Below, in pieces: positions 4,044 through 19,644 of a stretch of DNA of 64,000 nt. The stretch comes from Herpetosiphon sp. NSE202 (GTDB lineage Bacteria > Chloroflexota > Chloroflexia > Chloroflexales > Herpetosiphonaceae): assembly GCF_042688385.1 (NCBI RefSeq), contig NZ_JBHUPY010000007.1, positions 2,110 through 66,109 on the forward strand, given 5' to 3'. The notes below the pieces were generated by a model. That model was not told the origin of the DNA. It saw nothing but the letters and a program-made list of their open reading frames with translations, and did no database searches. Every line of letters starts with the position of its first letter. The stretch's first letter is position 1. The position numbers and the translations under genes were made by a program.

Positions 4044-5951
4044 ATGATCGATACAGACGCTCCAAATGCGGCAATTCTCGCGATTTTGCAAAATGATAAT
4101 GCTGTGGCTCAAGCCCAGGAGCTGCGAGCGTTTGGCGCAACGTGGCAAAGCCAAAACGCTGATCCTCAAATGTTGACCAAACTTGGCATCGATGCCGCTA
4201 CCCAAGCTCGGCTTGATCCCAGTGCGGTGGTAACTGATTTGCTGCTTGGCTATGCTGCCGCCCGCGAGGAACAGCGCACCCGCCATTGGCAAAACCACTT
4301 GATGCGCCGCGTGCAACAGCTCGATGGCTTGCATCGAATTATTAGCGCCGCCAACTCAACCCTTGATATTGATGCCTCGCTGCAAACTGTGGTCGATACG
4401 GTTAGCGATGTGATGCGGGTCGATGTTTGTTCGATTTATCTTTTCGATCAGCATCGGCGCATGCTGCGTTTGGTCGCAACTCGTGGGCTGAATCCCAAGG
4501 CGATTGGCACGGTTGAGGTTGAAATTGGGGTCGGCGTAACTGGTTGGGCTGGCGAATTAGGCAAGCCGGTGGCGATTTTCGATGTGCGCAACGAGCCGCG
4601 CTACCAGCTTGAACCGCTGCTCGAAGAATGGCATTTCCGCTCGCTGCTAGCAGTTCCCGTGATTTTATTTGCCAGCGAGCGCCACCATATCGAAACCCTG
4701 CAAGGCGTGATCACAGTGCAGAATCGCGATCCGCATGAGTTTTCGCAAGAGCAAACCTCATATCTCGAAGTGGTGGCGGGTGAAATTGCACTCTCAATTG
4801 CCAATGCGCAAATGTATCAACAAACTGATGCCCGTTTGCACCAAAAAATTCGTGAATTAACCACCTTGCAGCGCGTAACGGCGGCCTTGGCTTCAACCTT
4901 GGATGTTGATAATCTGCTGCATTTGATTGTTGAGCAAGCTGTTAAAATCGCTGATGTTGATCGCACCGATATTTTCCAAGTGCGACCAAATAATAAAGTT
5001 AAAATGTTGGCTTCGTATGGCCCTGGCCGCACTTCCGGCGTAGAAGATATGATTGTGCAAGTAATTCGTGAGCATCGGGCGATTGCCGTGCCCAATGCCT
5101 ACACCGACGAGCGTTGGTCGGGCGTGCAGGCAATTGCCTATCGCGAGGGCTTTCACTCGTTGTTTGCGCTGCCGATGCGCACTGGCAATCGAATTATTGG
5201 GGCCTTGTGTTTTTATAGTTATGCGCCGCGTCACATCGAATACGAACAAGTTCAATTGCTCACCACGTTTGCCGATGAAGGCGCAATTGCAATCGAAAAT
5301 GCCCGCTTGTATGAAGAAACTCAGCGCAATCTGACGATCAAATCGACCTTGCTGCAAGAGATTCATCATCGCGTGCGCAACAATTTGCAAACGATCTCGG
5401 CCTTGTTGCAAATGCAAGCCCGCCGTTTGAACACCGAAACTGAGGGTCGGCAGGCGCTTGATGATAGTGTGCGCCGCATCCATGCGATTGCTGCTGTGCA
5501 TAATTTGCTCAGCCACGATGGCGAAGGCCAAACCACCGTCCAAGATATTGCCAAGCAAATTGCCGAAAATATTCAGATGAGCTTGCCAACCGAAACTCCA
5601 GTCGAATTTTTGATCACTGGCGATTCGGTGTTGGTCAATGCGCGGGCAGCAACGGTGTTGGCGATTGTCATCAATGAATTAGTGCATAATGCGCTTGATC
5701 ACGGCCTGAGCGCCGAAGGCGGCATCATCGGCATCGATGGCTGGCTCGAAGCTGAACACGCGTGGGTGCAAGTCCGTGACGATGGCCCGACCAGACCAGA
5801 GCCAGTTAAACGCCGCGTCAGCACTGGGCTGGGGCTTGGCATTATCGAAACCTTGGTCAACACCGACCTTGGTGGCAGCTTTGAATTCAAACGCGAAGCC
5901 GAATGGACTCGCGCACTGATTAAATTTAGCCCTGATGAATTAGATGATTGA
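4044..5951 (+). CDS. Sensor histidine kinase with two GAF domains and a HisKA_2/HWE-type H-box
   Basis: There are two GAF-like blocks (VCSIYLFD.., DIFQVRPNN..) and the H-box EIHHRVRNNLQTISALLQMQ. A C-terminal HATPase region (VHNALDHG.., GLGLGI) is present. Confidence 0.85.
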   Translation: MIDTDAPNAAILAILQNDNAVAQAQELRAFGATWQSQNADPQMLTKLGIDAATQARLDPSAVVTDLLLGYAAAREEQRTRHWQNHLMRRVQQLDGLHRIISAANSTLDIDASLQTVVDTVSDVMRVDVCSIYLFDQHRRMLRLVATRGLNPKAIGTVEVEIGVGVTGWAGELGKPVAIFDVRNEPRYQLEPLLEEWHFRSLLAVPVILFASERHHIETLQGVITVQNRDPHEFSQEQTSYLEVVAGEIALSIANAQMYQQTDARLHQKIRELTTLQRVTAALASTLDVDNLLHLIVEQAVKIADVDRTDIFQVRPNNKVKMLASYGPGRTSGVEDMIVQVIREHRAIAVPNAYTDERWSGVQAIAYREGFHSLFALPMRTGNRIIGALCFYSYAPRHIEYEQVQLLTTFADEGAIAIENARLYEETQRNLTIKSTLLQEIHHRVRNNLQTISALLQMQARRLNTETEGRQALDDSVRRIHAIAAVHNLLSHDGEGQTTVQDIAKQIAENIQMSLPTETPVEFLITGDSVLVNARAATVLAIVINELVHNALDHGLSAEGGIIGIDGWLEAEHAWVQVRDDGPTRPEPVKRRVSTGLGLGIIETLVNTDLGGSFEFKREAEWTRALIKFSPDELDD

Positions 5952-5957
5952 GCCAGC

Positions 5958-6908
5958 ATGACCCAACTATCGCTCATTTGCACCGTCAAAAACGAAGCCG
6001 ATACTATTGCCGCTTTGCTTGATTCGATGTTGGCCCAAAGCCGCCAGCCCGATGAAATTGTGGTCAACGATTGTGGCTCGACCGATGCCACTGCGGCAAT
6101 TGTGCAAAGCTATATCGATCGCGGCGCAGCAATTCGGCTCGTCCATGGCGGGTTTAATATCTCTTCTGGCCGTAATAATGCGATTATGCATGCCCAAGGC
6201 CACTTGATTGCCTCCACCGATGCGGGCTTAGCGCTCGATCGCGAATGGCTCGAACGGATTGTCGCGCCGCTCGAAGCAGATCAAGCAGATTTAGTGGCGG
6301 GCTTTTATCAAGCAGCGCCGCGCAGCGACCTCGAAACCGCAATTGGCGCAACCAACTATCCACTAGCCGCAGAAGTTGATCCCAGTCGATTTTTGGCGGC
6401 TGGTCAATCGGTGGCGTTTCGCAAAGTTGTGTGGGAAACAGTTGGCGGCTATCCTGAATGGCTCGACCACTGCGAAGATTTAGTGTTTGATCAAGCGGCT
6501 ACTGCGGCGGGGTTTCGCAGCACAACGGTGCTTGATGCAGTTGTACATTTTCAGCCGCGCTCAAGTTTTCGCGCCCTCTTTCGCCAATATTTCTTCTATG
6601 CCCGCGGCGATGGCGTTGCTAACCTCTGGCCATTGCGCCAGGCAATTCGTTATGCAACCTATTTTGGTTTGTTGCTGTTGCTCCGTAACCTATTACAACG
6701 CCCATGGCTTGGCGTTTTATTGGGCCTCGGCCTTGCTGGCTACACCCGCAAACCCTATCGCCGCTTGTGGCGAGCAACCAAAGGCTGGGCATTCGCCCGT
6801 CGGCTCAAAACCCTCAGTTTACCGCCAATGATTCGCGTGGTTGGCGATGTCGCCAAAATGGTTGGCTATCCTGTTGGGTGGCTGGTGCGGCTGCGTAAAT
6901 TCAAATAA
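5958..6908 (+). CDS. Family 2 glycosyltransferase
   Basis: LSLICTVKNEADTI..DEIVVNDCGSTD...TDAG is a GT-A DxD-type fold. It starts 7 nt after the stop of the kinase gene. Confidence 0.8.
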   Translation: MTQLSLICTVKNEADTIAALLDSMLAQSRQPDEIVVNDCGSTDATAAIVQSYIDRGAAIRLVHGGFNISSGRNNAIMHAQGHLIASTDAGLALDREWLERIVAPLEADQADLVAGFYQAAPRSDLETAIGATNYPLAAEVDPSRFLAAGQSVAFRKVVWETVGGYPEWLDHCEDLVFDQAATAAGFRSTTVLDAVVHFQPRSSFRALFRQYFFYARGDGVANLWPLRQAIRYATYFGLLLLLRNLLQRPWLGVLLGLGLAGYTRKPYRRLWRATKGWAFARRLKTLSLPPMIRVVGDVAKMVGYPVGWLVRLRKFK

Positions 6909-6918
6909 TCGGGGTTGT

Positions 6919-7046
6919 AATCTTCCCTCACCCCAACCCGCTCCTGTGACGTGGACAAGGGGCTTTAATCTGGTGGTTCTCTCCCAATTCCATGGTAAAA
7001 ACGGATGCTCCCTCTCGCCCGCGTTTTCGTGGGAGAGGGAACGTTT
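6919..7046. repeat. PE-family inverted-repeat element
   Basis: Left arm ccctcaccccaaccc...ggggcttta and right arm ccctctcgcccgcgtt..gggagaggg. Confidence 0.8.
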
Positions 7047-7143
7047 CCAATCACTAAAACCCAACAAATGGCTGATTGACAAGCCCTAAGTACCTTTGAT
7101 AGCATCGGATTCTCTGGATTCTAGAAGATATAGGAGTGATGTG

Positions 7144-8364
7144 ATGCGTTATCGTCGAGGGTTGGCTTGGTTATTGTTGGGTTTGGTGGGCTGTAGTAGC
7201 GCCACTAGCCCGACCAGCCAACCACAACCAAGCGCCAATGTGATTGTCGCCGAGCCAAGCGCAATTCCTGCCGCAACCAGTGCCCCAACGGTTGCCGCCA
7301 CCCTGCAACCAAGCCCAACCGTGAGCAGCCAATTATTGCCTCAGCCGTTGTATGCGCTCTCGTCGCAACCAAATGGCGTGCAGATTGTGCGCCTCGAAAC
7401 CGATGGCAAAACACTTACGCCAATTACCAGCGAGCAAAATGGGGTCTTCGATTATCAGATCAGCAACCTCGGCCAAATTGCCTACATCGCCAACAACGAT
7501 TTAATTTTGGTCGATGCGCTGGGCCAAAATCGCGAGATATTGGTCGATGGACCAACCATCGACCCCCAAGCAGATACCAATGTCTTTCATCGTGATCAGC
7601 TCAATACGCCGCGCTGGTCGCCCGATGGCAGTTCGATTGCCTTTAGTTGGGGCGGTTTGCAAGTGCTCAATCTGATTGATCGTAAGCAAACTATGCTTCA
7701 ACCGCACACCAGCAACACAGATGCAGCCTTGGCCGATATTTATGATTATTCGGTGTTGTATGGGCCAAATAGTTGGTCGCCTGATGGCAGCAAAATTTTG
7801 GCTGCGGCAGGGTTTGTGCCCGAGGGTGGCAATTTAGTTTTGTTTGATTTGGCTACATCTGCGCCCCTAACGATTACCATCAATGGCAATTATCCATGTT
7901 GTCATGTGAGCTGGGAGCCAGATGGCAGCGCAATCAACGTCACGAACGAGGTTTTTGGCATGTTCCCAACTGGTTGGTGGCATATCAACCCCAGCACAGG
8001 CGAGGCCAAAGCCATGATCGATGGCGATAATGTTGCACCATTCCAGCCAGTTTCGAGCGTCTTTATGCAACCCGATGACAGTCATTTGGCCTTTGTTGGC
8101 ACGGTCGATAGCAATGATCCGATGGAAATTTCGGCTCCACTAACCCTCAGCCGAATTGGCTTGGATGGGAGCATCACGCCATTGCGCCAAGATAGCCAAA
8201 CCGTTGGCAGCGTCTTATGGTCGCCTGATGGCAGCGGCGCAGTCATCATCCCATCAATCATGGCTGAAACGCAATTGCAATGGGTTCCCAGCAATGGCAG
8301 CGCGATCGCCGATTTGGCACTAAGCGGGGCTAATATGCAATGGGCGATTGCGCTCGATCAATAG
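7144..8364 (+). CDS. TolB-like PD40 beta-propeller lipoprotein
   Basis: Signal peptide plus lipobox LVGCSS. WSPDGS motifs recur (RWSPDGSSIAF, SWSPDGSKIL, LWSPDGSG). GGAG lies 7 nt upstream of the ATG at 7144. Confidence 0.75.
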   Translation: MRYRRGLAWLLLGLVGCSSATSPTSQPQPSANVIVAEPSAIPAATSAPTVAATLQPSPTVSSQLLPQPLYALSSQPNGVQIVRLETDGKTLTPITSEQNGVFDYQISNLGQIAYIANNDLILVDALGQNREILVDGPTIDPQADTNVFHRDQLNTPRWSPDGSSIAFSWGGLQVLNLIDRKQTMLQPHTSNTDAALADIYDYSVLYGPNSWSPDGSKILAAAGFVPEGGNLVLFDLATSAPLTITINGNYPCCHVSWEPDGSAINVTNEVFGMFPTGWWHINPSTGEAKAMIDGDNVAPFQPVSSVFMQPDDSHLAFVGTVDSNDPMEISAPLTLSRIGLDGSITPLRQDSQTVGSVLWSPDGSGAVIIPSIMAETQLQWVPSNGSAIADLALSGANMQWAIALDQ

Positions 8365-9771: not shown

Positions 9772-11244
9772 ATGTTAGAACTTACTTTTGATGCTGATGC
9801 ACGGGCTTTATATGCCTACTTTACCGATATTAACGAAGGCGATGACGCGAGCCAGCTGGAAATTCCAGGGGTCTTTTTATTAGATGCCGCTGGGCAGATC
9901 GTTGGCGTGCAGTTGCAATTGGCTTCAGCACCGAAAAAAAGCTTTTTGCAATATGCCCAAGGCTTCGAAGAGCTACACTACAACGAAGAGAATCGCCAAT
10001 TAACCCTGAGCTTCGGCCAGCACGAAGTCGTCACCAGCGAGGAACTGCCCTACGAGGCGATTGTTGATCTCGATCGCAAAGGCCGCGCCTTGGGCATCGA
10101 AATCCAGGCGATGATTGAGTTTGGCATCAACGATCGGCTTGAAGCGCTGAACCCATGGTTGGTTGCTTTCGACGAAGATGGCGACGCTGAGTTCGACGAC
10201 GACGATGAATCTGACGACGAGCAACCAGAAGTCAAGGCTGCGCCACAGGCCGCTGCCGAGGTTGACGACGAGGACGAAGATGGGCCGGTTGTGCATCAAC
10301 TGCCAGTCAAACTCAACCCAAATTTACCCAAGCCCTTGCTGCCAACCGATCATGAAGTCCACAGTGGGTTCGTGGCCTTGGTCGGCAAGCCCAACGTCGG
10401 CAAATCGACCTTGTTGAATGCCTATCTTGGCCAAAAAGTCTCGATTGTTTCGCCGAAACCGCAAACAACGCGCGTGCCAGTGCGTGGCATTCTCAACGGC
10501 CCCGATGCCCAGATTATTTTCGTCGACACGCCAGGGATTCACAAACCACGGCATAAGCTTGGCAATTTTATGGTCGATGTGGCCAAAAAGGCAGTGCCAA
10601 ACGCCGATGTGATCTGCTTTATGGTCGATATTACTGTGCCACCCAACCGCATGGATCGCGAAATTGCCCAAATGGTTTTGCTTTCGCGCAAGCCCCATAT
10701 TTTGGTGCTCAACAAAGTCGATGCCACTGACGAGGCCGATAAGCATTTGCAAGAATATCGCGACCTTGCGCCATGGGAAATGGAAGTTGCCGTTTCGGCC
10801 CGCGATAAGCTTGGCATGGAAACCTTGCTCGAAGAAATCGTCAAGCGCTTGCCCGTTGGCCATCGCCTCTACCCAGAAGATCAACTTTCCGATGTTTCCG
10901 AGCGCACCTTGGTCGCCGAGATGATTCGCGAAAAGGTTATGCTCAACACCGAGGAAGAAATTCCGCACTCGGTCGCGGTCGAAGTTGAAGAATGGGAAGA
11001 TCGCGGCAAGGTGATTTACATTCGTGCCAACATTTCAGTCGAAAAAGATTCGCAAAAAGGCATCATCATTGGGGCCGGTGGCTCGATGCTACGCAAAATT
11101 GGCGCAACTTCACGCTTTGAAATCGAGCGCTCAATTGGTCGCCAAATCTATCTCGATCTGTGGATCAAGGTACGTGAAAATTGGCGACAAAAGCCCAATG
11201 AGCTGCGATGGCTCGGCTATGACGTAAAGTACTATAGGGATTAA
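9772..11244 (+). CDS. era: GTPase Era (G-domain plus C-terminal KH) fused to an N-terminal extension of about 190 aa: two DUF2283-like units and a poly-Asp/Glu linker
   Basis: The Era part has FVALVGKPNVGKSTLLN (G1), DTPG (G3), NKVD (G4) and a C-terminal KH domain. The N-terminus MLELTFDADARALYAYF...IPGVFLLDAAGQIVGVQL matches the DUF2283 consensus (xDxEADALYIxx..PGVxLDxDxxGxIVGIEI). The single ORF has no stop between the parts. Confidence 0.85.
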   Translation: MLELTFDADARALYAYFTDINEGDDASQLEIPGVFLLDAAGQIVGVQLQLASAPKKSFLQYAQGFEELHYNEENRQLTLSFGQHEVVTSEELPYEAIVDLDRKGRALGIEIQAMIEFGINDRLEALNPWLVAFDEDGDAEFDDDDESDDEQPEVKAAPQAAAEVDDEDEDGPVVHQLPVKLNPNLPKPLLPTDHEVHSGFVALVGKPNVGKSTLLNAYLGQKVSIVSPKPQTTRVPVRGILNGPDAQIIFVDTPGIHKPRHKLGNFMVDVAKKAVPNADVICFMVDITVPPNRMDREIAQMVLLSRKPHILVLNKVDATDEADKHLQEYRDLAPWEMEVAVSARDKLGMETLLEEIVKRLPVGHRLYPEDQLSDVSERTLVAEMIREKVMLNTEEEIPHSVAVEVEEWEDRGKVIYIRANISVEKDSQKGIIIGAGGSMLRKIGATSRFEIERSIGRQIYLDLWIKVRENWRQKPNELRWLGYDVKYYRD

Positions 11245-11273
11245 CCCCAATAGGCTAACCCTTTATGGACAAA

Positions 11274-11300
11274 TGGCAGGGGATACGCATCCCCTGCCTT
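11274..11300 (+). terminator. Possible hairpin terminator after era
   Basis: ggcagggga-tacgca-tcccctgcc is a 9-bp GC-rich stem followed by a T-containing tract. Confidence 0.4.
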
Positions 11301-11358
11301 AGTGATTTTATGCCATACTACAGTGTGTGGTATTTTTTTGTAATCCATGAGGCGGCCT

Positions 11359-14232
11359 ATGCACGATGTTGAGCGAATCCGTCAGAAAATTATCAACCTC
11401 CAAGCCCGCCGCGCCCAAGAGAATGACCAAGATCTGATCGAAGCCCTCGATCAAATGATTGGCCAACATCAACAGCAACTCAGCCAGCTCGCCCAACAAG
11501 CCGCCGTCGTTGCCGAAACGCCAGCCCCTGCTGCAACTCAAGGCCAAATCTATGGTTCCAGCGTTATGACCAACCTTGGTCATGTTTGGATAAATCAGGT
11601 TTTTAATGCACCGCTGAGCACTGGCGAACGCACCGATCAATTAATTTTGCACTATTTGGCCCATATTCAGGGCAACGCCGATCGCTTGGTGCTGGGAACC
11701 GATGTGCAGGATAGCGATCAGGAGCGCATGTCGTTGCAGCGAGTTTTTACCATGCTGCAAGCTGATTTTTATGGGCCTATTGCTGGCGATGCCTTGTTGC
11801 AATCGTTGCTCTTGGGCAGCCCGCAGCCGCGTCCGCAACTGCAAGATTCAATTCTCAAGGCGCTGAACCAAATTCAACACCAAAAAGCTGTGATTTTGGG
11901 CGTGCCAGGCGGCGGCAAAACCACCGTGGTTTCGTATTTAGCCTCTGCCCAAGCGGCAGCCTTGCTCGATCCAGCCAAAGCTGAGTTTTTGCATAGCCAA
12001 GGTTGGATGCATACCAAACTTGTGCCAGTGCGCGTGCGGCTCAAACATGTGCAACCGCCAGCCAACCCAGAGCAACAAACCGCCGACGCATTTTGGGAAG
12101 TTGTGACCGAGCTGCAATTGGCTGGACGCTTCGGCCAGCGTTCGATCAACAGCGATGTTGGTTTTCAGCGCGTCGAGATCGAGCGCCAACAACGCCTGCA
12201 AGATGCAATTGAAGAATTGTTGATCAACGGCAATGGCTTGCTGCTGCTCGATGGCCTTGATGAAGTGCAGCCCGAACATCTGGCCGCAGTCAAGCGCTGC
12301 ATCGAACATGCTCAGCGTATGTTTCACAAAAGCAGGATTATCGTTACCTGTCGGGTTTTTGATTATGAACACCCGCTGCCGCCGCCGTTTCCCTCGCGCC
12401 AGCTCTACGATTGGCCAACAATTCAATTGATGCCGTTTGATCTGACGGCGCAGCACGTCTATATCACCAATTACTATAGCGAATTGGGCCGCTTGCATGC
12501 CTCGCACGCCGATATTGTGAGCATTCGCAAAAAACACGCCAAACTGCACGCCGAATTGATGAAATCGGGGATGTTACATGAACTGACCCGCACGCCCTTG
12601 TTGCTGGCGTTGACCGTCCATGTCAATATGGTGCATACCGATTTACCGGAGAGCGAAGGCAAATTATTGCACATTTGTATCGACGAATTGCTCAAACGCC
12701 GCGCGCCCGAAGCAATTGCCGTTTCGCTCGAAGATCTGTACGATTTGGTGGCCTTGTTGGGCTATTATGCCCATAGCCAAGAGGAAATTCAGGGCAAAGC
12801 CTTGCTCAGCTTGCAGCAAATTAACACCGTCGTGCAGCGCTATTACAGCGATCGCTACCCGCATCCTAATCAAATTCATATGCTCTCGCAGGCAGTGGGC
12901 AATGCAACCTTGCGGCTGATCAATAGCAATGGCTTGTTGCAAGAAGCCAGTAACAATCAACAAGATAATCCGCATTATGATTTTGCCCATCGCTTGTTTC
13001 AGCAATTTTTGGCTGGCATGTATTTGCTCAATCAAGAGCGCCACGATGAATGTATCGAACGCTCTGGCAGTGAGCATTGGCGGGTTTGCCTGCATTACAT
13101 GGCCAATTTTGCGCCCTACATTCAAAAGCAAAGCTTTATTTTTGGGGTCATTCAAGATTTGCTTGGTGGCATGCCCGACGAACAGGTGCAAGGCTCGCAT
13201 TTGCTCTTGGCGATTGGCAAGCCCAAAGTTGCCAGCGCAGGGCGACGCAATCTCTGGCAACAAGCGATTAATCATCTCAAAAATATTGGCGGCCTGAGCG
13301 GCAGCAGTCGCGGTGTGCGGCGTTGGGCACCACCACGAATTGCCTTCCCAACCCGTATGCGTGCGGCCATGGTGTTGGGCGCAATTGGCGATACGCGCTT
13401 TATCGGCGAAGATGGAGCCTTGATTGCGCTCACCGAGCGGGTTGTCTGCATTAATCCAGGCAGCGTGGAGATTGATGATCCGCATGCGCGGCCCCAAACT
13501 TACAGCGTTGAGCGTTTTTGGATGAGCCGCTATTTGCTGACCAACCTTGAATATAGCCAATTTATCGCGGCCCGTGGCTACTTGGATGATCAATGGTGGC
13601 AACACGATGATGCCCGCCACTGGCGACGCGGCGACCCTTCGTGGTTGCATGGGTTGCCGCCATGGGCCGCGCCACGGCGCTTGCCCGATTTATGGCATAA
13701 CGAACGCTTTAATAACCCAACTCAGCCAATCGTCGGCATCAATTGGTATGAAGCCAATGCCTTTTGTGCTTGGCTGACCCAACAACTGCGGCCCCAACTC
13801 GATGCGCTTGGCCAAAATTTAGTGGTACGCTTGCCAAGCGAGGCCGAATGGCAACTAGCGGCCAGCCAACAGAGCAACCGTGAATATCCATGGGGCGATG
13901 AATGGCGCAACGATCATGCCAACACCAGCGAAAGCGATCTTGAGCAACCAACGCCGGTTGGCATGTTTCCCTATGGCACGTGGAGCGATGGCCCAATGGA
14001 TTTAGCGGGCAATGTGTGCGAATGGACAAATAGCGTTAATCGCGACCCTGAGCTTGACCCGCAAATAACCCGCAATCGGCGCTTGCAACATCGCGATTTG
14101 GTAGTGGCGGTGCGTGGTGGCTCGTGGTTTCATAATCGCTATTTTGCCCGTTGCCGTTCGCGGCTGCATCATCGCCCATTTAGCCATGGCCCCAACATTG
14201 GCGTGCGCTTAATTATTGGCCACGCAGAATAA
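11359..14232 (+). CDS. STAND NTPase with an N-terminal coiled-coil/helical domain, a NACHT core and a C-terminal FGE-sulfatase (SUMF1-like) domain
   Basis: Walker A VILGVPGGGKTT is at about 11899-11925. Walker B is LLLLDGLDEV, followed by the sensor-1 motif IIVTCRVFDY (NACHT signature). The C-terminal roughly 300 aa (RFWMSRYLLTNLEY...VGINWYEANAFCAWL...RLPSEAEWQLAA...GNVCEWT..VRGGSWF) is typical of the FGE-sulfatase fold. The start is ATG 11359 or 11347. Confidence 0.85.
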   Translation: MHDVERIRQKIINLQARRAQENDQDLIEALDQMIGQHQQQLSQLAQQAAVVAETPAPAATQGQIYGSSVMTNLGHVWINQVFNAPLSTGERTDQLILHYLAHIQGNADRLVLGTDVQDSDQERMSLQRVFTMLQADFYGPIAGDALLQSLLLGSPQPRPQLQDSILKALNQIQHQKAVILGVPGGGKTTVVSYLASAQAAALLDPAKAEFLHSQGWMHTKLVPVRVRLKHVQPPANPEQQTADAFWEVVTELQLAGRFGQRSINSDVGFQRVEIERQQRLQDAIEELLINGNGLLLLDGLDEVQPEHLAAVKRCIEHAQRMFHKSRIIVTCRVFDYEHPLPPPFPSRQLYDWPTIQLMPFDLTAQHVYITNYYSELGRLHASHADIVSIRKKHAKLHAELMKSGMLHELTRTPLLLALTVHVNMVHTDLPESEGKLLHICIDELLKRRAPEAIAVSLEDLYDLVALLGYYAHSQEEIQGKALLSLQQINTVVQRYYSDRYPHPNQIHMLSQAVGNATLRLINSNGLLQEASNNQQDNPHYDFAHRLFQQFLAGMYLLNQERHDECIERSGSEHWRVCLHYMANFAPYIQKQSFIFGVIQDLLGGMPDEQVQGSHLLLAIGKPKVASAGRRNLWQQAINHLKNIGGLSGSSRGVRRWAPPRIAFPTRMRAAMVLGAIGDTRFIGEDGALIALTERVVCINPGSVEIDDPHARPQTYSVERFWMSRYLLTNLEYSQFIAARGYLDDQWWQHDDARHWRRGDPSWLHGLPPWAAPRRLPDLWHNERFNNPTQPIVGINWYEANAFCAWLTQQLRPQLDALGQNLVVRLPSEAEWQLAASQQSNREYPWGDEWRNDHANTSESDLEQPTPVGMFPYGTWSDGPMDLAGNVCEWTNSVNRDPELDPQITRNRRLQHRDLVVAVRGGSWFHNRYFARCRSRLHHRPFSHGPNIGVRLIIGHAE

Positions 14233-14240
14233 GGAGCTTT

Positions 14241-14855
14241 ATGATGCAACTTTCGATGTTAGAGCAAATGAGCACCCAAAGCTTATACGATTTACGCGAA
14301 CAGCACCGCAAAAATTTGAATATTTTGGCGCAGCAGGCAGGCCAATGGGGTGCTGGCAGCGTACCGCCCGAAACCCAAGCCCAAATTAGCCAAACCCAAG
14401 CCATGCTCGAACAAATTAATTTGGTACTTGGGCAGCGCGGGCATAGCAACCAAAGCGATCCAGCCCGTGGAGCCTCGTTGCAGGCTGTGCTTGAACATTA
14501 TCGCCAGCAAGCGCCAGTCCAGAATACGGGCACGGTCAATCTCAATAACAGCTCTGTTTACGGCGTGGTAACGGGAGTCAATACGGGCACGATTACGGTC
14601 AATCAACACACAGGCCAAACAGCTTCAAGCCTGCAACAAGCAGCTCAGCTGATCCAACATTTGTTGCCCATGGCCCGCAGCCAACGCAGCCCGTTTCGCC
14701 ATGCCCTGAGCGATGCAGAATTAACTATCGGTGATGCGCTGAGTGCGCAGCGTAATGGCAATGATCCCCAGCCATTGATTCAGCAGGCTCGCGCTGATTT
14801 ACAAGCGTTTGGCGACTATCCAGAGATTCAGCAAGTATTGGGGTTGTTGCGGTAG
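14241..14855 (+). CDS. Hypothetical 204-aa protein, translationally coupled to the NACHT gene; its N-terminal helix resembles the N-terminus of the NACHT protein
   Basis: AAGGAG at 14231-14236 overlaps the NACHT stop (TAA 14230-14232). LAQQAGQWGAGSVPPETQAQISQTQAMLEQINLV aligns with NACHT LAQQAAVVAETPAPAATQGQIYGSSVMTNLGHVWINQV. Confidence 0.6.
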   Translation: MMQLSMLEQMSTQSLYDLREQHRKNLNILAQQAGQWGAGSVPPETQAQISQTQAMLEQINLVLGQRGHSNQSDPARGASLQAVLEHYRQQAPVQNTGTVNLNNSSVYGVVTGVNTGTITVNQHTGQTASSLQQAAQLIQHLLPMARSQRSPFRHALSDAELTIGDALSAQRNGNDPQPLIQQARADLQAFGDYPEIQQVLGLLR

Positions 14856-14861
14856 TAGTTG

Positions 14862-15075
14862 GGGATCGGGGGCTGGGGGTTGGGGGCTGAGGCTGGGGAT
14901 CGGGGATTAGGGATCAGGAGTTTAACGCAGAGGCGCAGAGCCACGAAAGTATGAAGGATGAGGGATGAAGGATGAAATCAAAAGGCAGAAGGCAAAAGCT
15001 TTTTTAACCACGAAGAGCACGAAGACATAGGGTTATGGGCTGTTGCCTGTTGGCTATCGGAACATGATTCGGGCA
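14862..15075. repeat. Word-mosaic element (ggggatcgggg/ggggctgg, tttaacgcagaggcgcagag, ggatgagggatgaaggatgaa, cacgaag, ggctat)
   Basis: Modules are shared with the other copies, in inverted orientation. Confidence 0.7.
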
Positions 15076-15152
15076 ATTCGTGACATTCGTGGCTAAAAAT
15101 GTTCATGGCTTTTGGCTATGTGTACTTGTGCATTGGCTTGGCAACCGTGTTC

Positions 15153-15362
15153 CCTCACCCCCCAGCCCCTCTCCCACTGAACGCGGGCGAGGGGAGCGCT
15201 TGTGTTTTCGACTAAGAACAATAGGATTAGATGGAAACCAATTATTACCCCACTGGACGCGGGCGAGGGGGAGCACGCATTTGTACCACGCCGTGCGGCA
15301 GAACCACGGCATTAAAGCCCCTCGCCCGCCACGTGGGAGAGGGGTTGGGGTGAGGGGATCTT
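15153..15362. repeat. PE-family element with an internal triplication of the cgggcgaggggag arm
   Basis: ccctcaccccccagcccctctcccactgaacgcgggcgagggg ... cccctcgcccgccacgtgggagaggggttggggtgagggg. Confidence 0.8.
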
Positions 15363-15519
15363 CACAACCTATCCTTGTAAGGATCGGGGGTCAGGGGCTA
15401 GGAATCGGATACGGGTGTAATTCCCAACATCTTTGACAGCCCACTCATGCTTCCGATAGCCAAAAGCCTATAGCCTTGTCCTTCGCGATACCCGATCCCC
15501 AACAACCGATCCCCAATTA

Positions 15520-16236
15520 CTACTGACCCCGATCTTCGAAGATGGCGGTGCGCACACCAGCCCAGCGTTCGCGGATCATGCCTGCGAGGGTGCGCAAACC
15601 CCAGTGTTCAGCGCGTTTGATGCCGGTGCTAAATGCAGCGATATTATTGGCGCGGCAGCTTGCTTGGGACGATTCACGCAAAATTGGCGTGAGGAAGGCT
15701 TGAGCGCCGCGATTGGCGGCCTCTTGCACGAGCGTTGGCGTAATTTGATTAACAATCGCTACCTTACGGATCGACTGCACGTTATTTTCCCAAACCTCAT
15801 CAACCCCGCCATACATATCCATCACCAAGCGTCGCCATTCGGCAGGCGTTACAGGTTTAGGCAAATCGCCGACCATGCCTAAGGGACGGCCACTTTTATC
15901 GGCCATGGGCGAGCGCCCGCGCAACCCCAAGACCTCGGCCAAACGTGGCACAAAGCCAATCGTTAAGCGTTCGTCAAAGGGTGCGCCTGCATATAACACC
16001 CCACGAGTTGGTGGCACGGTATCACGATCGAGTTGTTGTGGGCGATGCAAAAAGATCGCATCGAGATCTTCGTGTTCGAGCCACGATGGCAAGGTTGGCC
16101 ATGGATCGAGCGCAAAGCCCATGCGGCGAATTGGCCGCACCGACGAAATATAGATCGTACCCCGTTCTTCACTTGGAAAGTACTCGGTCTCTAGAATGGT
16201 TTGCAAGAAGGTAGAAAGTTCAGCGAGGTTTGGCAT
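15520..16236 (-). CDS. Conserved hypothetical protein, tentatively NIF3-like
   Basis: ORF with MPNLAELSTFLQ..; ..LDAIFLHRP.. resembles the NIF3 'DLIIxHHP' region. Weak call; no canonical metal ligands identified. Confidence 0.35.
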   Translation of the reverse strand: MPNLAELSTFLQTILETEYFPSEERGTIYISSVRPIRRMGFALDPWPTLPSWLEHEDLDAIFLHRPQQLDRDTVPPTRGVLYAGAPFDERLTIGFVPRLAEVLGLRGRSPMADKSGRPLGMVGDLPKPVTPAEWRRLVMDMYGGVDEVWENNVQSIRKVAIVNQITPTLVQEAANRGAQAFLTPILRESSQASCRANNIAAFSTGIKRAEHWGLRTLAGMIRERWAGVRTAIFEDRGQ

Positions 16237-17340: not shown

Positions 17341-19644
17341 TTACTCTCCGCTTTCGCTGGGCGTAACTTTTTTGCGGCGACGGGGCTTGGCTGGATCCGC
17401 AGGAGCTGGTGCTTCAGCAACTGGCTCAGCTTTTTTGCGACGAGTGGTTTTCTTAGGTTTTTCTTCGACAACTTCGGCAGTCTCAGCAGCTTTGCGCTTG
17501 CCACCACGTTTTTTGGGCTTTTCAGCCACTGGCTCGGCCGCAGCTTCAACTACTGGCTCAGCCACGACTTCGGCCACAGGCTCGCTGATGACTTCGCCAA
17601 CCGGCTCGGCCACAGCTTCAACCACTGGCTCGGCAACTGGCTCAGCCTGGTTATTGGCGGCAATTGCTTCGGCCACACTCAGCGGCACAATCGACTTGCG
17701 GCGGCGGCTTGGCTTACGTGGCTTGATTGCTGCATTGGTCGCAGCGCCCACGGGAACTTCATAATCGATTGGCTCAGCAAACGAATAATCTGCATCGTTA
17801 TCGGGCAATGGCTGCTCTTCAAAGCTTTCGGGCAAGGCCACTTCGTCGATTGGCGCAGTGTAATCGTCGTCAATCGCAATTGCTTGACCACCAATCATCG
17901 CTGGCAACAAGCGTGGCTCTTCGTCAACCAAATCGGGCAAGCTTGGGCCATCATCGAAGGCGGTATGTTCGCTTGGCTCAAAGCTTGAGCCAGCGGCATC
18001 ATGCTGTTCTGGGTTGAGCACAAGCCGATAGTGGGCTTTGGCTCCGCGATTTGAGCGTTGCACTTTGCCTTCATTAATCGCCTGCTTGATCAATTCCTTC
18101 AAGGCATTATTGGTCAATTCAAGTTCTGCGGTATTGCGCATTTCACGCAAATCGTTAAAGATGTCGGCAAACGGCACAGGCTCGCTGTAAACACCCATCA
18201 CTTGATAGAACAATTGCCATTCGCGCTCGCCAAAGCTAAAGCCTTCGGGTAACGCGGGAACCAAGACCGTTTCGCCCAGTTCATCGGGCACAATATCGGC
18301 GGTTGGTTGCTCGCTACGACTGCTGCCACGGCGGCGACGGCGGCGGCCATTGCGATCGCCACGATCGCTGCTTGCAGTTGCATCTTCGCCTTCGCCTAAT
18401 TCCATTGGCTCGTCGGCAATGCCAATCGTTTCGATTGTAATTGGCGCAATTGCTTCTGCTTGCAATTCAAGCTCTTGTTCAAGCTCGCGTTCTGCTTCAA
18501 CTGAAGGCAGATCTTCGGCAAACTGCGAGAGCTTGTAGGGATCTTCATCGGGCAAGAACACTTCGTTGACCGTGCCACTGGTGAAGATCTGAATCTTGCC
18601 GAGGCGTTCGGCTTCGCGCACAAAATCGGTAAATTTGGTGAATGGTTTGCCCTGAGCGTCGCGATAGCGGCTTTCCTTGAAGTTGGGCATCAACTCTTTC
18701 ATCAAGACTTTAAGCGAGCCAAACGAGGTGACATAGCCGCGTTTGCGGGCTAAGTGCAAGGCCTCGACCAACTTATCGTAGATCGCTGCATCGGGGTTGG
18801 TTGGGGTAGTGGCCACGACTGGCGTAATGCTCGGCGCTGGGCGAACGACAATTTCGGCTGGTTTTTCAACTGGCTTTTCAGTGCGTGGCTCTGGTTTTTC
18901 AGCCCGCGAATCAAGCCGCTCGAAATGTGGTTCGCTGTGTTTTTCTGGGCGTTCGCTGCGATCGCGGCGGCGTTCATCGCGGCCATTGCGCTCGCTGCGC
19001 TCACCACGGTCGCTACGTTCGTTGCGCTCGCTGCGGTCGCCACGTTCTGCGCGGTCGTTGCGCTCAACCCGTTCTGGGCGCTCAACGCGCTCGAAGGTTT
19101 TTTCGCTGCGATCGTGGCGTTCGTTGCGGCGGCCACCCATTGGGCGAATATCGACAATTTGCTCGTAGAACAAAAATTCATCGGCGCTTTGGGCAAGGTG
19201 GCTCGAAGCAGCGCCGCCAATCCCAACGATAATCACATCTTTGCCTTCTTGGCGCACACAGTTGACCAAAGCGATAAAATCGCGGTCGCCGGTGATAAAA
19301 ATATAGGCTCCGATGTTGGTGCGGGTGTAAAGCGTGCGCATGGCATCGATACACATGTGCATATCAACACTATTTTTGATGGGACGGCCCATGCGGCCTT
19401 CGTCCTTATCATAATAGTAGGTTGGCACATACATCGGCTCAATATTATTGGCAAATAAGGCGCTAGTAATGCGTGGGTAACGATACCAATCGGCGTAAGC
19501 GCGGGCTACAACAACACGGCCATAGTCTTCGCAGCGTTCCATCAAGGCTTCGAAATTGGGGGTAGCGTCGAACTTCTCGCGAACTGAAACATAAATGTTC
19601 TCGAAGTCGATAAAAACCGCAACATCCTGCTTGGGTTTGTTCAT
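17341..19644 (-). CDS. NYN (LabA-like) nuclease-domain protein with two OST-HTH/LOTUS-like domains and extensive low-complexity repeats
   Basis: The N-terminus has VAVFIDFENI...ITGDRDF (NYN). The central region is ER/DR-rich ((E/D)R(S/A)ER..). Two OST-HTH-like segments are present (YDKLVEALHLARKRGYVTSFGSLK.., FYQVMGVY..ELIKQAINEGKV). The C-terminus has (AEPV/VAEPV)n repeats and a lysine-rich tail. Confidence 0.7.
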   Translation of the reverse strand: MNKPKQDVAVFIDFENIYVSVREKFDATPNFEALMERCEDYGRVVVARAYADWYRYPRITSALFANNIEPMYVPTYYYDKDEGRMGRPIKNSVDMHMCIDAMRTLYTRTNIGAYIFITGDRDFIALVNCVRQEGKDVIIVGIGGAASSHLAQSADEFLFYEQIVDIRPMGGRRNERHDRSEKTFERVERPERVERNDRAERGDRSERNERSDRGERSERNGRDERRRDRSERPEKHSEPHFERLDSRAEKPEPRTEKPVEKPAEIVVRPAPSITPVVATTPTNPDAAIYDKLVEALHLARKRGYVTSFGSLKVLMKELMPNFKESRYRDAQGKPFTKFTDFVREAERLGKIQIFTSGTVNEVFLPDEDPYKLSQFAEDLPSVEAERELEQELELQAEAIAPITIETIGIADEPMELGEGEDATASSDRGDRNGRRRRRRGSSRSEQPTADIVPDELGETVLVPALPEGFSFGEREWQLFYQVMGVYSEPVPFADIFNDLREMRNTAELELTNNALKELIKQAINEGKVQRSNRGAKAHYRLVLNPEQHDAAGSSFEPSEHTAFDDGPSLPDLVDEEPRLLPAMIGGQAIAIDDDYTAPIDEVALPESFEEQPLPDNDADYSFAEPIDYEVPVGAATNAAIKPRKPSRRRKSIVPLSVAEAIAANNQAEPVAEPVVEAVAEPVGEVISEPVAEVVAEPVVEAAAEPVAEKPKKRGGKRKAAETAEVVEEKPKKTTRRKKAEPVAEAPAPADPAKPRRRKKVTPSESGE

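Follow-up and report, generated by a model that had tools for sequence, protein, structure and literature searches.

The two genes and their products

Within the window, a 64,000-nucleotide (nt) stretch of DNA from Herpetosiphon sp. NSE202, two adjacent genes encode a NACHT protein with a C-terminal FGE-sulfatase (FGS) domain and a small partner protein (Table 1). Both open reading frames (ORFs) are real, and the small gene is co-transcribed and translationally coupled with the NACHT-FGS gene. The sequence-only reading had described a tightly coupled two-gene STAND module with an 8-nt gap and a Shine-Dalgarno sequence lying over the NACHT stop codon, and each of these elements is borne out; by their coordinates, other Herpetosiphon loci have the same 8-nt spacing. 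Translation of the NACHT-FGS ORF likely begins at 11359, judging from a GAGG 6 nt upstream and from the MHDVERIR that opens its homologs, although the ORF list also holds an ATG at 11347 that would yield 961 amino acids (aa). In the small gene, the second ATG (14244) is the start used by homologs.

TABLE 1 Features of the NACHT-FGS locus, in window coordinates
Feature	Position	Strand	Evidence or remark
Terminator-like hairpin and T-run	11310..11333	+	After era, directly before the NACHT-FGS start; consensus scan, a pattern match only
NACHT-FGS gene	11359..14232	+	957 aa; ORF list, homolog starts, AF2 model, Foldseek
NACHT N-terminal helical hairpin, aa 2-51	11362..11511	+	AF2 helices 2-20 and 24-51, pLDDT 80-96
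NACHT-side shared motif, aa 63-84, QIYGSSVMTNLGHVWINQVFNA	11545..11610	+	Aligns to the small-protein motif
Post-motif helix, aa 92-107 (..LILHYLAHIQ..)	11632..11679	+	hhalign to small protein; AF2 helix 92-107
NOD module (NBD, helical and winged-helix domains), aa about 134-645	11758..13293	+	Motifs, Foldseek
Walker A GVPGGGKTT	11899-11925	+	Sequence motif
Walker B LLLLDGLDE	12238-12264	+	Sequence motif
TCR (IIVTCR)	12346-12354	+	Sequence motif
HEAT-like LGxxGDxRF element	N-terminal to FGS domain of NACHT protein	+	
FGE-sulfatase (FGS, SUMF1-like) C-terminal domain	13441..14214	+	Pfam PF03781, E = 1.6e-38, 258 aa
Shine-Dalgarno AAGGAG of small gene	14231-14236	+	Overlaps NACHT stop TAA 14230-14232; read from sequence
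Small partner gene	14241..14855	+	204 aa; ORF list
Small-family N-domain, aa 1-90	14241..14510	+	Helical hairpin and RG..S.DP.PG...hY; conserved P0070-P0080
Small-side shared motif region, aa 95-127, NTGTVNLNNSSVYGVVTGVNTGTITVNQHTGQT	14523..14621	+	Conservation, AF2, composition
C-terminal four-helix bundle, aa 130-202	14628..14846	+	AF2 pLDDT about 80

The NACHT-FGS protein is a STAND NTPase of the NACHT/NLR type. Because its own Pfam NACHT score (18.0 bits) falls below the gathering cut-off of 26.7, this identity is drawn from its motifs, from homologs that pass the cut-off and from fold comparison. The Walker A, Walker B and IIVTCR motifs named in the sequence-only reading are all present, and neither the Walker motifs nor the sensor arginine varies among 43 NACHT homologs (invariant positions G181, G184, G186, K187, T189, D298-E302 and R332). 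Foldseek comparison of the AF2 model (mean pLDDT 84.7) returned NLRC4 as the best match (E = 6e-13), together with NOD2, NLRP3 and FGE-fold proteins. The C-terminal domain is an FGE-sulfatase domain, as had been proposed, with PDB profile matches to ToxD, EgtB, PorK and FGE. A search for an enzymatic effector domain in this protein found none, in agreement with the earlier claim, and a Pfam search with its N-terminal hairpin gave no match.

The small protein has no family match in Pfam, NCBIfam or PADLOC, nor was a database family found for its N-domain, in which AF2 places helices at residues 12-34 and 43-68. It lacks a transmembrane (TM) segment (maximum KD19, 0.43), a hydrophobic helix of the Bell or HeLo type and any enzymatic or recognisable toxic domain, and it gave no informative fold match. 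Its family comprises 11 representatives, with orthologs 85 to 98% identical in Herpetosiphon.

Conservation and genomic setting

The pair is kept in five Herpetosiphon genomes and in one related Chloroflexia MAG (L010), and the genomes with the pair include H. giganteus, H. llansteffanensis, H. geysericola and H. aurantiacus. In all five Herpetosiphon genomes and the MAG, the order of the locus is era, NACHT-FGS, small gene and NIF3-Trm112-trpF-NYN; syntenic relatives keep the small gene. The pair also occurs in two more distant Herpetosiphonaceae lineages; at loci L011, L012, L017 and L018, the NACHT protein is 45 to 46% identical and the small protein 35 to 37%. Between species, NACHT-FGS is 95 to 99% identical, above Era, NYN and PRAI (for example, 95.4% for NACHT versus 89.4% for Era). 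The flanks of the locus contain no defence genes, PADLOC returned no matches for the pair, and neither motif pattern (see below) was found in the viral contigs searched. This housekeeping setting and high conservation are unlike those of typical conflict systems and weaken the defence label that the locus had first been given.

The NACHT side also occurs by itself. For a motif-bearing NACHT-FGS paralog (L013/L004), the 1 kb upstream and the 7.8 kb downstream contain no partner, nor can one be seen for the homologous beta-rich N-terminal segment of the wider clade of Oscillochloris and Viridilinea, for which reason the NACHT-side motif may have a partner-independent role. The Oscillochloris paralogs reside in an island with integrase, resolvase and relaxase genes.

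A short motif shared by the two proteins

Similarity between the two proteins is reproducible between NACHT residues 58-109 and small-protein residues 95-145. The shared element is a roughly 20-aa beta-type (strand-forming) motif plus the one helix after it, internal in both proteins and shorter than a folded domain; the motif, in which N, G, T, V and Q abound, spans residues 63-84 of the NACHT protein (YGSSVMTNLGHVWINQ) and 95-127 of the small protein (VYGVVTGVNTGTITVNQ). Alignment of the two profiles with hhalign gave a 51-column match (E = 8.6e-4, score 28.5, probability 24%), within which the NACHT helix at residues 92-107 falls. That score was reached by none of 200 global and none of 150 local column shuffles (maxima of 19.5 and 17.9, respectively), and the reversed template scored 15.8. 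By BLASTP, three pairs showed similarity at E = 0.001-0.003, and in the L011 pair, 11 of 18 identities within the motif constitute the sole similarity between the two proteins. Pairwise shuffling yielded P values of 0.002-0.003 for Herpetosiphon and of about 0.05 for the L011 and L012 pairs. Among the 73 ORFs of the window, the NACHT N-terminus ranks first against the small protein, and across all loci the motif expression matches these two genes only. At E <= 10, the NACHT-side motif escaped a profile HMM (pHMM) built from nine small-side motifs.

The motif is the best-conserved block of both proteins (on the NACHT side, within the N-terminal 150 aa). Eight NACHT residues (N72, L73, G74, H75, W77, N79, Q80 and F82) do not vary among homologs with as little as 40% identity, thirteen small-protein positions from V106 to G125 are invariant at 35% overall identity, and Herpetosiphonaceae pairs whose NACHT proteins are only 45% identical share the motif in the same way. 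In the AF2 monomers, the motif has low confidence on both sides (pLDDT of 39-68 in the NACHT protein and below 50 in the small protein), and the flanking helices are confident. The small-side motif region is enriched in N (3.0x), T (2.5x) and G (2.5x) and depleted in P (0.09x), K (0.21x) and L (0.39x).

Relatives of the small protein

The motif and four-helix bundle of the small protein (residues 94-204) together form a mobile, conserved, adaptor-like module (module M) that is elsewhere fused to a caspase. A caspase (Peptidase_C14) protein at locus L022 has a C-terminus homologous to this module (hhalign, 97%, E = 1e-10, 112 columns), the N-domain of the small protein occupying the place of the caspase. 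The sequence-only reading had found nothing recognisable in the C-terminus and described it as Gln/Thr/Asn-rich; no database family matches the whole protein, but the last 110 aa are this conserved mobile module rather than an orphan tail. Genes of the N-domain family adjoin STAND, caspase, EAD7 and EAD10 genes: some relatives carry EAD7 beside an nSTAND1-EAD7-kinase, and others lie downstream of a protein ending in TPRs or adjoin caspases, neighborhoods that speak for the earlier idea of coupling between sensor and partner. Locus L022 also offers a second, independent case of coupling through a motif that is likewise internal: a different 24-aa motif (G.RGV.IGG.A..A.I.TGD.N) is common there to four proteins (z = 7-36), namely a member of the small family, the caspase and, within their EAD10 N-termini, an nSTAND2 ATPase and a TPR protein. 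None of the Pfam EADs scores against either window protein, and EAD10-like N-termini match the NACHT N-terminus over only 10 columns (hhalign, E = 0.037).

A model for the pair and its alternatives

The reading we favor, at slightly less than an even chance, is that the locus is an NLR-type signalling module of the filamentous Chloroflexi bacterium Herpetosiphon, in which a STAND sensor and a motif-coupled partner communicate by motif-mediated recruitment. The FGS domain would act as the ligand sensor, and binding of a ligand would free the NACHT protein to oligomerise in an NTP-dependent manner. The NACHT N-terminus, with no enzyme but a predicted helical hairpin followed by an exposed, roughly 20-aa beta-type motif and a single helix, would thereby present clustered motifs. 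These could recruit and convert the motif of the small protein via homotypic beta-strand pairing, most likely by amyloid-like (cross-beta) templating of the HET-S/NWD2 and Bab/Agp kind, with simple beta-augmentation as the other option; amyloid-like templating is possibly the mode of action of the pair. Pairing would then assemble or activate the helical domains of the small protein as the output.

The sequence-only reading had also envisaged homotypic coupling, but through a shared N-terminal alpha-helical, EAD-like domain; its general idea fits, and the element that is shared proved to be the internal beta-type motif. In favor of helical coupling are the LAQQAG.../LAQQAA... alignment (BLASTP of NACHT 40-74 with small-protein 21-55, 14 of 35 identities, E = 0.001), a gapped local alignment of NACHT 1-128 with small-protein 14-171 in the Herpetosiphon pair, and the confident AF2 hairpin that opens both proteins. 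However, the profiles of the NACHT N-terminus and the small-family N-domain are not significantly similar (E = 0.071, probability 0.8%, in another register), where the earlier reading had proposed a profile alignment of residues 20-90, and this result largely refutes a shared helical domain. Moreover, the LAQQA segment is not kept in NACHT homologs at 40 to 48% identity, the helix similarity is confined to Herpetosiphon and absent from the L011 and L012 pairs, and neither protein matches a Pfam EAD, making this explanation highly improbable. What was first observed at the locus is thus partly confirmed and its interpretation partly supported.

Physical coupling via the motif might also be lacking altogether, the similarity being a relic of partial duplication or a coincidence and the small protein merely co-transcribed. 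The failure of the small-side pHMM on the NACHT side, the borderline P values in L011 and L012, the hhalign probability and the ancestry of the NACHT-side segment in a wider, partnerless clade would all suit this account. It is nonetheless a poor candidate, as the similarity coincides exactly with the best-conserved block of both proteins, is kept and even higher (11 of 18) in pairs diverged to 35 to 45% identity, beats all 350 column shuffles and has a parallel with another motif at L022. Alternatively, the small protein could be a stoichiometric regulator (a cap, inhibitor or chaperone) that binds the NACHT motif by beta-augmentation and keeps the sensor off or stabilises it, with neither templating nor a separate effector output. 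The shared motif and the close operon linkage count equally for regulation and for recruitment, the partner's lack of a toxic, enzymatic or TM element fits a regulator, and strong core-like conservation suits a regulated housekeeping sensor; the partnerless NACHT-FGS relatives with an N-terminal beta segment suggest a NACHT N-terminus capable of acting by itself, with the partner as its modulator. Yet fusion of module M to a caspase and of the N-domain to EAD7 beside STAND kinases is the syntax of effectors and adaptors, not of inhibitors, and cross-beta motifs typically have the composition seen here, so that we consider a regulator unlikely.

As to biological role, it is a tenable, if tentative, proposition that the pair is a core cellular sensor of Herpetosiphon rather than an anti-phage or conflict system, responding, for example, to a conserved endogenous or environmental ligand or controlling development or cell fate at the level of the filament. 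The constant locus order, the defence-free flanks and negative PADLOC result, the conservation of NACHT-FGS above its neighbors and the absence of both motif patterns from the viral contigs searched all point this way. Against it stand the STAND-FGS architecture and the partner's relatives, which belong to networks interpreted as conflict or programmed-cell-death systems (PMC8195603; PMC7159879), as well as the integrase, resolvase and relaxase island of the Oscillochloris paralogs.

Comparison with known systems

STAND NTPase-FGS conflict systems were described by Kaur, Iyer, Burroughs and Aravind (eLife 2021, PMC8195603), and FGE-sulfatase-like STAND sensors also appear in a later report (Nature 2026, PMC13581612). 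Like these systems, which are enriched in multicellular bacteria, the Herpetosiphon protein has a central NACHT-clade STAND NTPase, a C-terminal FGS (C-type-lectin-fold) domain and an N-terminus that would serve output or coupling. Their listed N-termini include bDLD3, EAD1, 2, 7 and 8, TIR and caspase (PMC8195603), whereas the Herpetosiphon N-terminus is a hairpin with a short beta-type motif and matches no listed EAD or effector. In further contrast, its partner is separately encoded and of an unannotated family, and the locus is core-like, outside a variable island.

Coupling by EADs, especially EAD7 and EAD10 (Kaur et al. 2020, PMC7159879; Pfam PF19960 and PF19954), likewise places a small non-enzymatic element on an NTPase core and on a neighboring stand-alone protein. 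The resemblance extends to the relatives of the small protein, which carry EAD7 or, at L022, have the beta-half of EAD10 in common with STAND and TPR N-termini, and to module M, which is swapped between caspase and N-domain like EAD-linked modules. Unlike EADs, the shared element is sub-domain in size, and both window proteins score for no Pfam EAD.

NLR-associated amyloid pairs include HET-S/NWD2 in fungi, the Bell/NLR BASS1-10 pairs of filamentous bacteria (Dyrka et al. 2020, bioRxiv 10.1101/2020.01.06.895854) and Bab/Agp (BASS11) in E. coli (Ibarlosa et al. 2024, bioRxiv 10.1101/2024.11.07.622273). Formal tests of the pair for BASS, Bell and EAD membership were all negative, and one pHMM does not cover both sides, which the Dyrka-type definition asks for, because the small-side model misses the NACHT side. 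The partner lacks a Bell, HeLo or Bab domain and a hydrophobic N-terminal helix, the NLR gene comes first, the sensor is FGS in place of TPR or WD, and the motif is internal in both proteins, whereas canonical BASS motifs sit at the NLR N-terminus and the partner C-terminus. On the side of likeness are the collinear genes no more than 10 bp apart in a filamentous host, the ~20-aa motif common to a small partner and the N-terminal part of an NLR-like sensor, and what may be a half-repeat in the partner (NTGTVNLN and NTGTITVN). The motif is also N/G/V/Q-rich and P/K/L-poor, matching the bias of BASS motifs, in which N, G, V and Q are enriched and P, K and L depleted (bioRxiv 10.1101/2020.01.06.895854). 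Overall, the pair resembles the motif- or adaptor-coupled sensor/partner pairs of multicellular bacteria and fungi.

Two tandem ORFs with a NACHT-type sensor

Two ORFs lie in tandem on the plus strand, the first carrying NACHT motifs, just where the sequence-only reading had placed them. The larger encodes NACHT-FGS, a STAND NTPase of the NACHT type with a C-terminal FGE-sulfatase-like (FGS) domain, and likely starts at 11359, because GAGG lies 6 nt 5' of this codon and orthologs begin MHDVERIR. The small gene directly 3' of it begins 8 nt past the TAA stop of NACHT-FGS, with an AAGGAG overlapping that stop, so that the tight spacing and the Shine-Dalgarno sequence over the stop are as originally described.

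The NACHT clade is recognized here by a Walker A of the form GxxGxGK[ST], a Walker B of the form hhhhDGxDE, and a downstream TCR-like sensor arginine, and NACHT-FGS has all three (GVPGGGKTT, LLLLDGLDE, and IIVTCR). The window protein scores 18.0 bits against Pfam PF05729 (NACHT), under the gathering cut-off of 26.7; the cut-off is passed by the homologs P0009 (30.9 bits) and P0013 (29.5 bits), which are about 30% identical, and P0008 (26.1 bits) falls narrowly under it. A PDB sequence-profile search returned no NLR matches, and a fold comparison was required: with the AF2 model (pLDDT 84.7), the best Foldseek matches are NLRC4 (4kxf, E = 6e-13), NOD2 (5irm), and NLRP3 (7alv), so that the NOD fold (NBD, HD1, WHD, and HD2) resembles that of solved NLRs. 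Because homologs pass the cut-off, 43 homologs keep the P-loop, Walker B, and sensor arginine unchanged (G181, G184, G186, K187, T189, D298-E302, and R332), and the fold matches NLRs, the NACHT identity of the protein is secure despite its sub-cut-off Pfam score.

The assignment of the C terminus to the FGE-sulfatase family is borne out by Pfam PF03781, which matches the last 258 aa as a full domain (E = 1.6e-38, 133 bits, profile positions 5 to 254 of 255); PDB profile and fold searches match this domain to ToxD, EgtB, PorK, and FGE. In true formylglycine-generating enzymes, the catalytic cysteine pair is the CxxxxC that follows GGS[YF]. The segment in NACHT-FGS reads RGGSWFHNRYFARC and contains no CxxxxC, and the domain is probably non-catalytic. 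At least 40 homologs have the NACHT plus FGE-sulfatase architecture. Caspase, CHAT, TIR_2, DUF4062, or Metallophos domains occur in homologs; the N-terminal 110 aa of the window protein match no Pfam family at E < 0.1 and no recognized effector-associated domain (EAD) or effector domain.

Features of the window locus and of related loci (L, loci in other genomes or MAGs; positions are nucleotides of each locus, or residues where marked aa)
Feature	Position	Strand	Description
Window Era GTPase	9772-11244		490 aa
NACHT-FGS ORF	11347/11359..14232	+	957 aa from 11359
Small gene ORF	14241..14855	+	204 aa
Small-side motif with possible half-repeat	14523-14621		NTGTVNLN and NTGTITVN
Small gene to NIF3 intergenic region	14852-15523		670 nt, nested inverted repeats
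Outermost 33-nt arms of that region	14852-14884 and 15491-15523
NYN-domain protein	17341-19644	-	767 aa
Split NACHT-FGS, L001 (same contig as L010)	5116-7990		two ORFs, 284 + 678 aa
Inserted ORF, L011	4421-4909		162-aa reverse-transcriptase-like fragment; no Pfam match
Inserted ORF, L012	3580-3975		DUF559 endonuclease-like protein, E = 5e-30
Tandem NACHT-FGS paralogs, L020	3048-16531		Oscillochloris sp. ZM17-4
Four-way motif locus, L022	957-8711
L022 motif, caspase	294 (aa)		GDRSVAIGGNANGATIITGDSN
L022 motif, P0071	92 (aa)		GNRGVAIGGNADNAQISTGDNN
L022 motif, EAD10-TPR	41 (aa)		GPRGVGINGDAPGAMIITGDNA
L022 motif, EAD10-nSTAND2	40 (aa)		GDRGVGIGGDAPNALIITGDGN

The element common to sensor and partner

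BLASTP of the NACHT N terminus against the small protein yields two collinear segments: NACHT 40-74 with small 21-55 (E = 0.001), which is the helix on which the sequence-only reading had based a common N-terminal domain, and NACHT 68-104 with small 106-142 (E = 0.002). Only the second survives profile comparison (A2 against A1, E = 0.003). With more diverse profiles of the NACHT N terminus (A5) and the small protein (A4), hhalign aligns NACHT 58-109 with small 95-145 over 51 columns (E = 8.6e-4), with a core of QIYGSSVMTNLGHVWINQVF (NACHT 63-82) against SVYGVVTGVNTGTITVNQHT (small 105-124). The helical homology failed when A5 was compared with A7, the profile of the small-family N-domain (E = 0.071, probability 0.8%), and is missing from the distant L011 and L012 pairs. 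The proposed architecture and the idea of homotypic coupling between sensor and partner are right in outline, with the common element misidentified: the surviving profile match lies in a motif rather than in the helix.

The hhalign score of 28.5 exceeds every control, including 200 global column shuffles (12.7 +/- 2.2, maximum 19.5), 150 shuffles limited to residues 95-145 (maximum 17.9), and the reversed template (15.8), and therefore reflects residue order beyond composition. Smith-Waterman shuffles give p values of about 0.002 to 0.003 for the Herpetosiphon pairs, and the NACHT N terminus ranks first of the 73 window ORFs against the small protein. At L011 and L012, the motif is the sole similarity between NACHT and small protein, matching at 11 of 18 positions in the former (61%, E = 0.001; VYGANLLSNLGHIWINQT against VYGAVTGSNHGTINVNQT) and at 10 of 17 in the latter, with a shuffle p of only about 0.05. 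It is the top-conserved block of both families, with 13 invariant positions from V106 to G125 in the small protein and N72, L73, G74, H75, W77, N79, Q80, and F82 invariant in NACHT, and a regular expression for it, run on the window and on all loci, matched NACHT-FGS and small genes only. A pHMM of the small side (9 sequences, 30 columns) recovered no NACHT N terminus at E <= 10 among 2737 ORFs.

The motif is enriched in N (3.0x), T (2.5x), G (2.5x), V (1.9x), and Q (1.6x) and depleted in P (0.09x), K (0.21x), and L (0.39x). It is internal in both proteins (aa 95-127 of 204 and aa 63-84 of 957) and unstructured in both AF2 monomers, with confident flanks. On the small side it may contain a half-repeat, weaker in the L011 and L012 orthologs, which recalls HET-s-type motifs, whose effector side has two pseudo-repeats.

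The small-protein family and module M

AF2 models the small protein as a helical hairpin (12-68), a disordered stretch that includes the motif (69-127), and a four-helix bundle (130-202, with a pLDDT of about 80). It has no TM segment and no hydrophobic helix; a PDB sequence-profile search matches only designed helical repeats, and Foldseek with the AF2 model finds nothing at E <= 0.001. An identity with PDC-M14B was rejected, as one member alone matched (E = 1.4e-4) and other members did not reproduce it.

An exhaustive HMMER search delimits a small family, P0070 to P0079, with a conserved N-domain of about 90 aa (SYxYL..L..lR..hRrNL..L..QA..FG..vP....NQI...I..iN.eL..RG..S.DP.PG....i.hY) followed by variable G/N/T/Q-rich segments. 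In P0077 (E = 5e-6) and P0080, EAD7 stands in place of these segments, and the neighbors include a TPR giant and an nSTAND1-EAD7-protein kinase. P0078 comes after a protein with TPRs at its end, P0072 after a gene of at least 757 aa, and P0073 before a caspase fragment; P0071 lies 23 nt past a 499-aa Peptidase_C14 protein at a locus (L022) that also has EAD10-TPR and EAD10-nSTAND2 genes; the exception is P0079, which adjoins a DUF4011 helicase.

Interpretation turns on two results from L022. The C terminus of its caspase, which contains VSGGTVHGPVTGLNQGTVNY, is homologous to residues 94-204 of the small protein (hhalign 97%, E = 1e-10, 112 columns). The small protein belongs to no family in Pfam, NCBIfam, or PADLOC; its C-terminal part, in which the sequence-only reading recognized nothing, has this homolog on a caspase. 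On this sequence homology, residues 94-204, comprising the motif and the helical bundle and here called module M, are a mobile unit joined to either the N-domain or a caspase; Kaur et al. (PMC7159879) describe such a syntax for effector-associated adaptors. The other result is a second, different motif of 24 aa (G.RGV.IGG.A..A.I.TGD.N) common to four L022 proteins; where Pfam EAD10 matches, this motif makes up the C-terminal half. Its placement is as in Herpetosiphon, helix-motif-helix at the NTPase N terminus and mid-protein in partners.

Conservation and synteny

A genome scan finds NACHT-FGS of the NLGHVWINQ type in Herpetosiphonaceae only: H. giganteus, H. llansteffanensis, H. geysericola, H. 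aurantiacus DSM 785, one related Chloroflexia MAG (L010), and the more distant MAGs L011, L012, and L013. Every Herpetosiphon locus reads era, NACHT-FGS, small gene, and then NIF3, Trm112, trpF, and NYN on the opposite strand, so the small gene is kept downstream of NACHT-FGS throughout these syntenic relatives, as the pairing had predicted. In five Herpetosiphon genomes and the related MAG, the pair always lies between era and NIF3, with NACHT-FGS identities of 95 to 99%, above those of Era. Between the window and H. aurantiacus, identity is 95.4% for NACHT-FGS, 89.4% for Era, 87.2% for NYN, 86.4% for the small protein, and 80.3% for PRAI; that NACHT-FGS is better conserved than its housekeeping neighbors Era, NYN, and PRAI is unusual for an NLR-like gene.

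At L011 and L012, NACHT is 45 to 46% identical, and a small homolog of 221 to 222 aa (35 to 37% identical) lies downstream beyond one inserted ORF. A paralog in the L011 MAG (L013/L004) has the motif and no partner nearby. In the Oscillochloris/Viridilinea NACHT-FGS clade, a homologous segment that is beta-rich (..VSVVGHADNVTFPPP..YL) aligns in register (hhalign E = 0.013), again with no partner seen beside it; a 244-aa call next to the Oscillochloris paralogs translates as Arg/Pro/Gly-rich, is probably spurious, and was rejected as a partner. Because these partnerless proteins carry the motif or its homologous segment, the NACHT-side element looks ancestral and the matching partner specific to Herpetosiphonaceae. 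A search with the small-side motif as a degenerate nucleotide pattern hit contigs of the L011 organism only, and neither motif was found in viral contigs.

Several features of these loci stand apart from the pair itself. The spacer between the small gene and NIF3, which also holds two inner pairs of inverted repeats and G-rich direct repeats (GGATCGGGG...), varies from about 150 to 665 nt across Herpetosiphon species, and this variation suggests a MITE- or REP-like insertion. The window Era has an N-terminal extension of about 190 aa, conserved at all Herpetosiphon loci, which contains a long acidic linker (DDDDESDDE...DDEDEDG) as well as DUF2283. In the NYN-domain protein, a long low-complexity repeat is rich in ER/SD (ERSDRGERSERN...), and the C-terminal tail consists of AEPV repeats. 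Oscillochloris sp. ZM17-4 has 3 or 4 tandem NACHT-FGS paralogs interspersed with integrase, resolvase, and relaxase genes; in contrast to Herpetosiphon, the setting there is that of a mobile island. In MAG MFD03066.bin.1.57, the small gene is intact and NACHT-FGS is split between two called ORFs, through either a frameshift that makes it a pseudogene or a fault in the assembly.

Mechanism and role

The pair is a real, conserved two-gene NACHT-FGS module, and the best-supported account of it is a STAND sensor with a partner recruited via a shared short beta-type motif. The NACHT sensor would oligomerize in an NTP-driven step, after which it might template the partner in a cross-beta form, as in HET-S/NWD2 and Bab/Agp; we infer that the partner would bind and exert an output activity. 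Simple beta-augmentation instead of templating is a close alternative, in which the same motif would do the joining. Cross-beta templating is favored because the motif has a BASS-like composition (BASS, bacterial amyloid signaling sequence), is unstructured in AF2, and occurs in a filamentous host, Herpetosiphon being a filamentous bacterium.

The sequence-only reading had also proposed a candidate defense or conflict system. The STAND-FGS architecture is present; the locus is core-like, which is atypical for conflict systems, its NACHT-FGS identity is above that of Era, no defense genes occur among the neighbors, and PADLOC returned no matches. The role may be one of housekeeping or developmental sensing. 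A much bolder account would make the YG-x7-N-x-G-x-h-x-h-N-Q element a previously undescribed Chloroflexi amyloid (cross-beta) motif family that joins a NACHT receptor with an FGS sensor to a new kind of output protein other than Bell (the novel N-domain of about 90 aa plus the mobile module M, found also on caspases), the whole being an NLR signalosome domesticated in Herpetosiphon as a core, highly conserved pair that serves as an NLR/amyloid switch for housekeeping or filament-level cell fate rather than strain-variable phage defense; this is unlikely.

NLR-like receptors that template a short motif onto a separate executioner occur in fungi, actinobacteria, cyanobacteria, and, recently, an E. 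coli anti-phage system, and to our knowledge all of them use a membrane-targeting domain of the HeLo, Bell, or Bab type as the executioner. Should the coupling prove real, the motif-templating principle extends to an FGS-sensor NACHT in Chloroflexi, and the N-domain and module M are two unannotated building blocks within the EAD/caspase/STAND networks of multicellular bacteria. A filamentous genus that can be cultured would then also offer a rare case of such a module behaving as a conserved pair of core genes, so that the physiological role of bacterial NLR/partner pairs, a long-open question, would become directly testable by knock-out.

Comparison with known systems

STAND-FGS proteins are already known with bDLD3, EAD1, 2, 7, or 8, or effector N termini (Kaur et al. 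2021, PMC8195603), and FGE-sulfatase-like STAND sensors are noted in a 2026 Nature paper (PMC13581612). The window protein resembles the STAND-FGS conflict systems in fusing a STAND NTPase to a C-terminal FGS domain but differs in having no recognized N-terminal EAD or effector, and its locus differs in showing no variable presence, defense-island or mobile context, or rapid evolution.

The likeness to BASS pairs (Dyrka et al. [quoted passage not shown] In BASS pairs, however, one pHMM finds both sides at E <= 0.01, whereas the small-side pHMM misses NACHT, and the partner is a Bell or effector protein with a C-terminal motif and the NLR motif is extreme N-terminal, whereas the window motif is internal in both proteins. 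The small protein has no similarity to Bell or Bab.

Neither window protein matches Pfam EAD7 (PF19960) or EAD10 (PF19954) at E <= 10 on the excised regions, and EAD10 membership of the NACHT N terminus was rejected; at L022, N termini score 25.3 and 20.3 bits against EAD10. The archetypal EAD10 protein of Kaur et al. is EAD10-TPR-GreA/B-C-PIN, and Agp, whose N terminus is the experimentally amyloid-forming BASS11, has the same architecture, which suggests, by analogy, that EAD10 and BASS11 may overlap. The L022 motif may likewise link EAD10 to BASS11-type amyloid motifs.

With no Pfam EAD, no Bell or Bab, an internal motif, and a pHMM that does not bridge the two sides, the window pair falls outside the documented members of BASS1-11 and of every EAD family. 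It would work like the STAND-FGS, BASS, and EAD systems, and its newness lies mainly in the undescribed N-domain, module M, and core-gene behavior.
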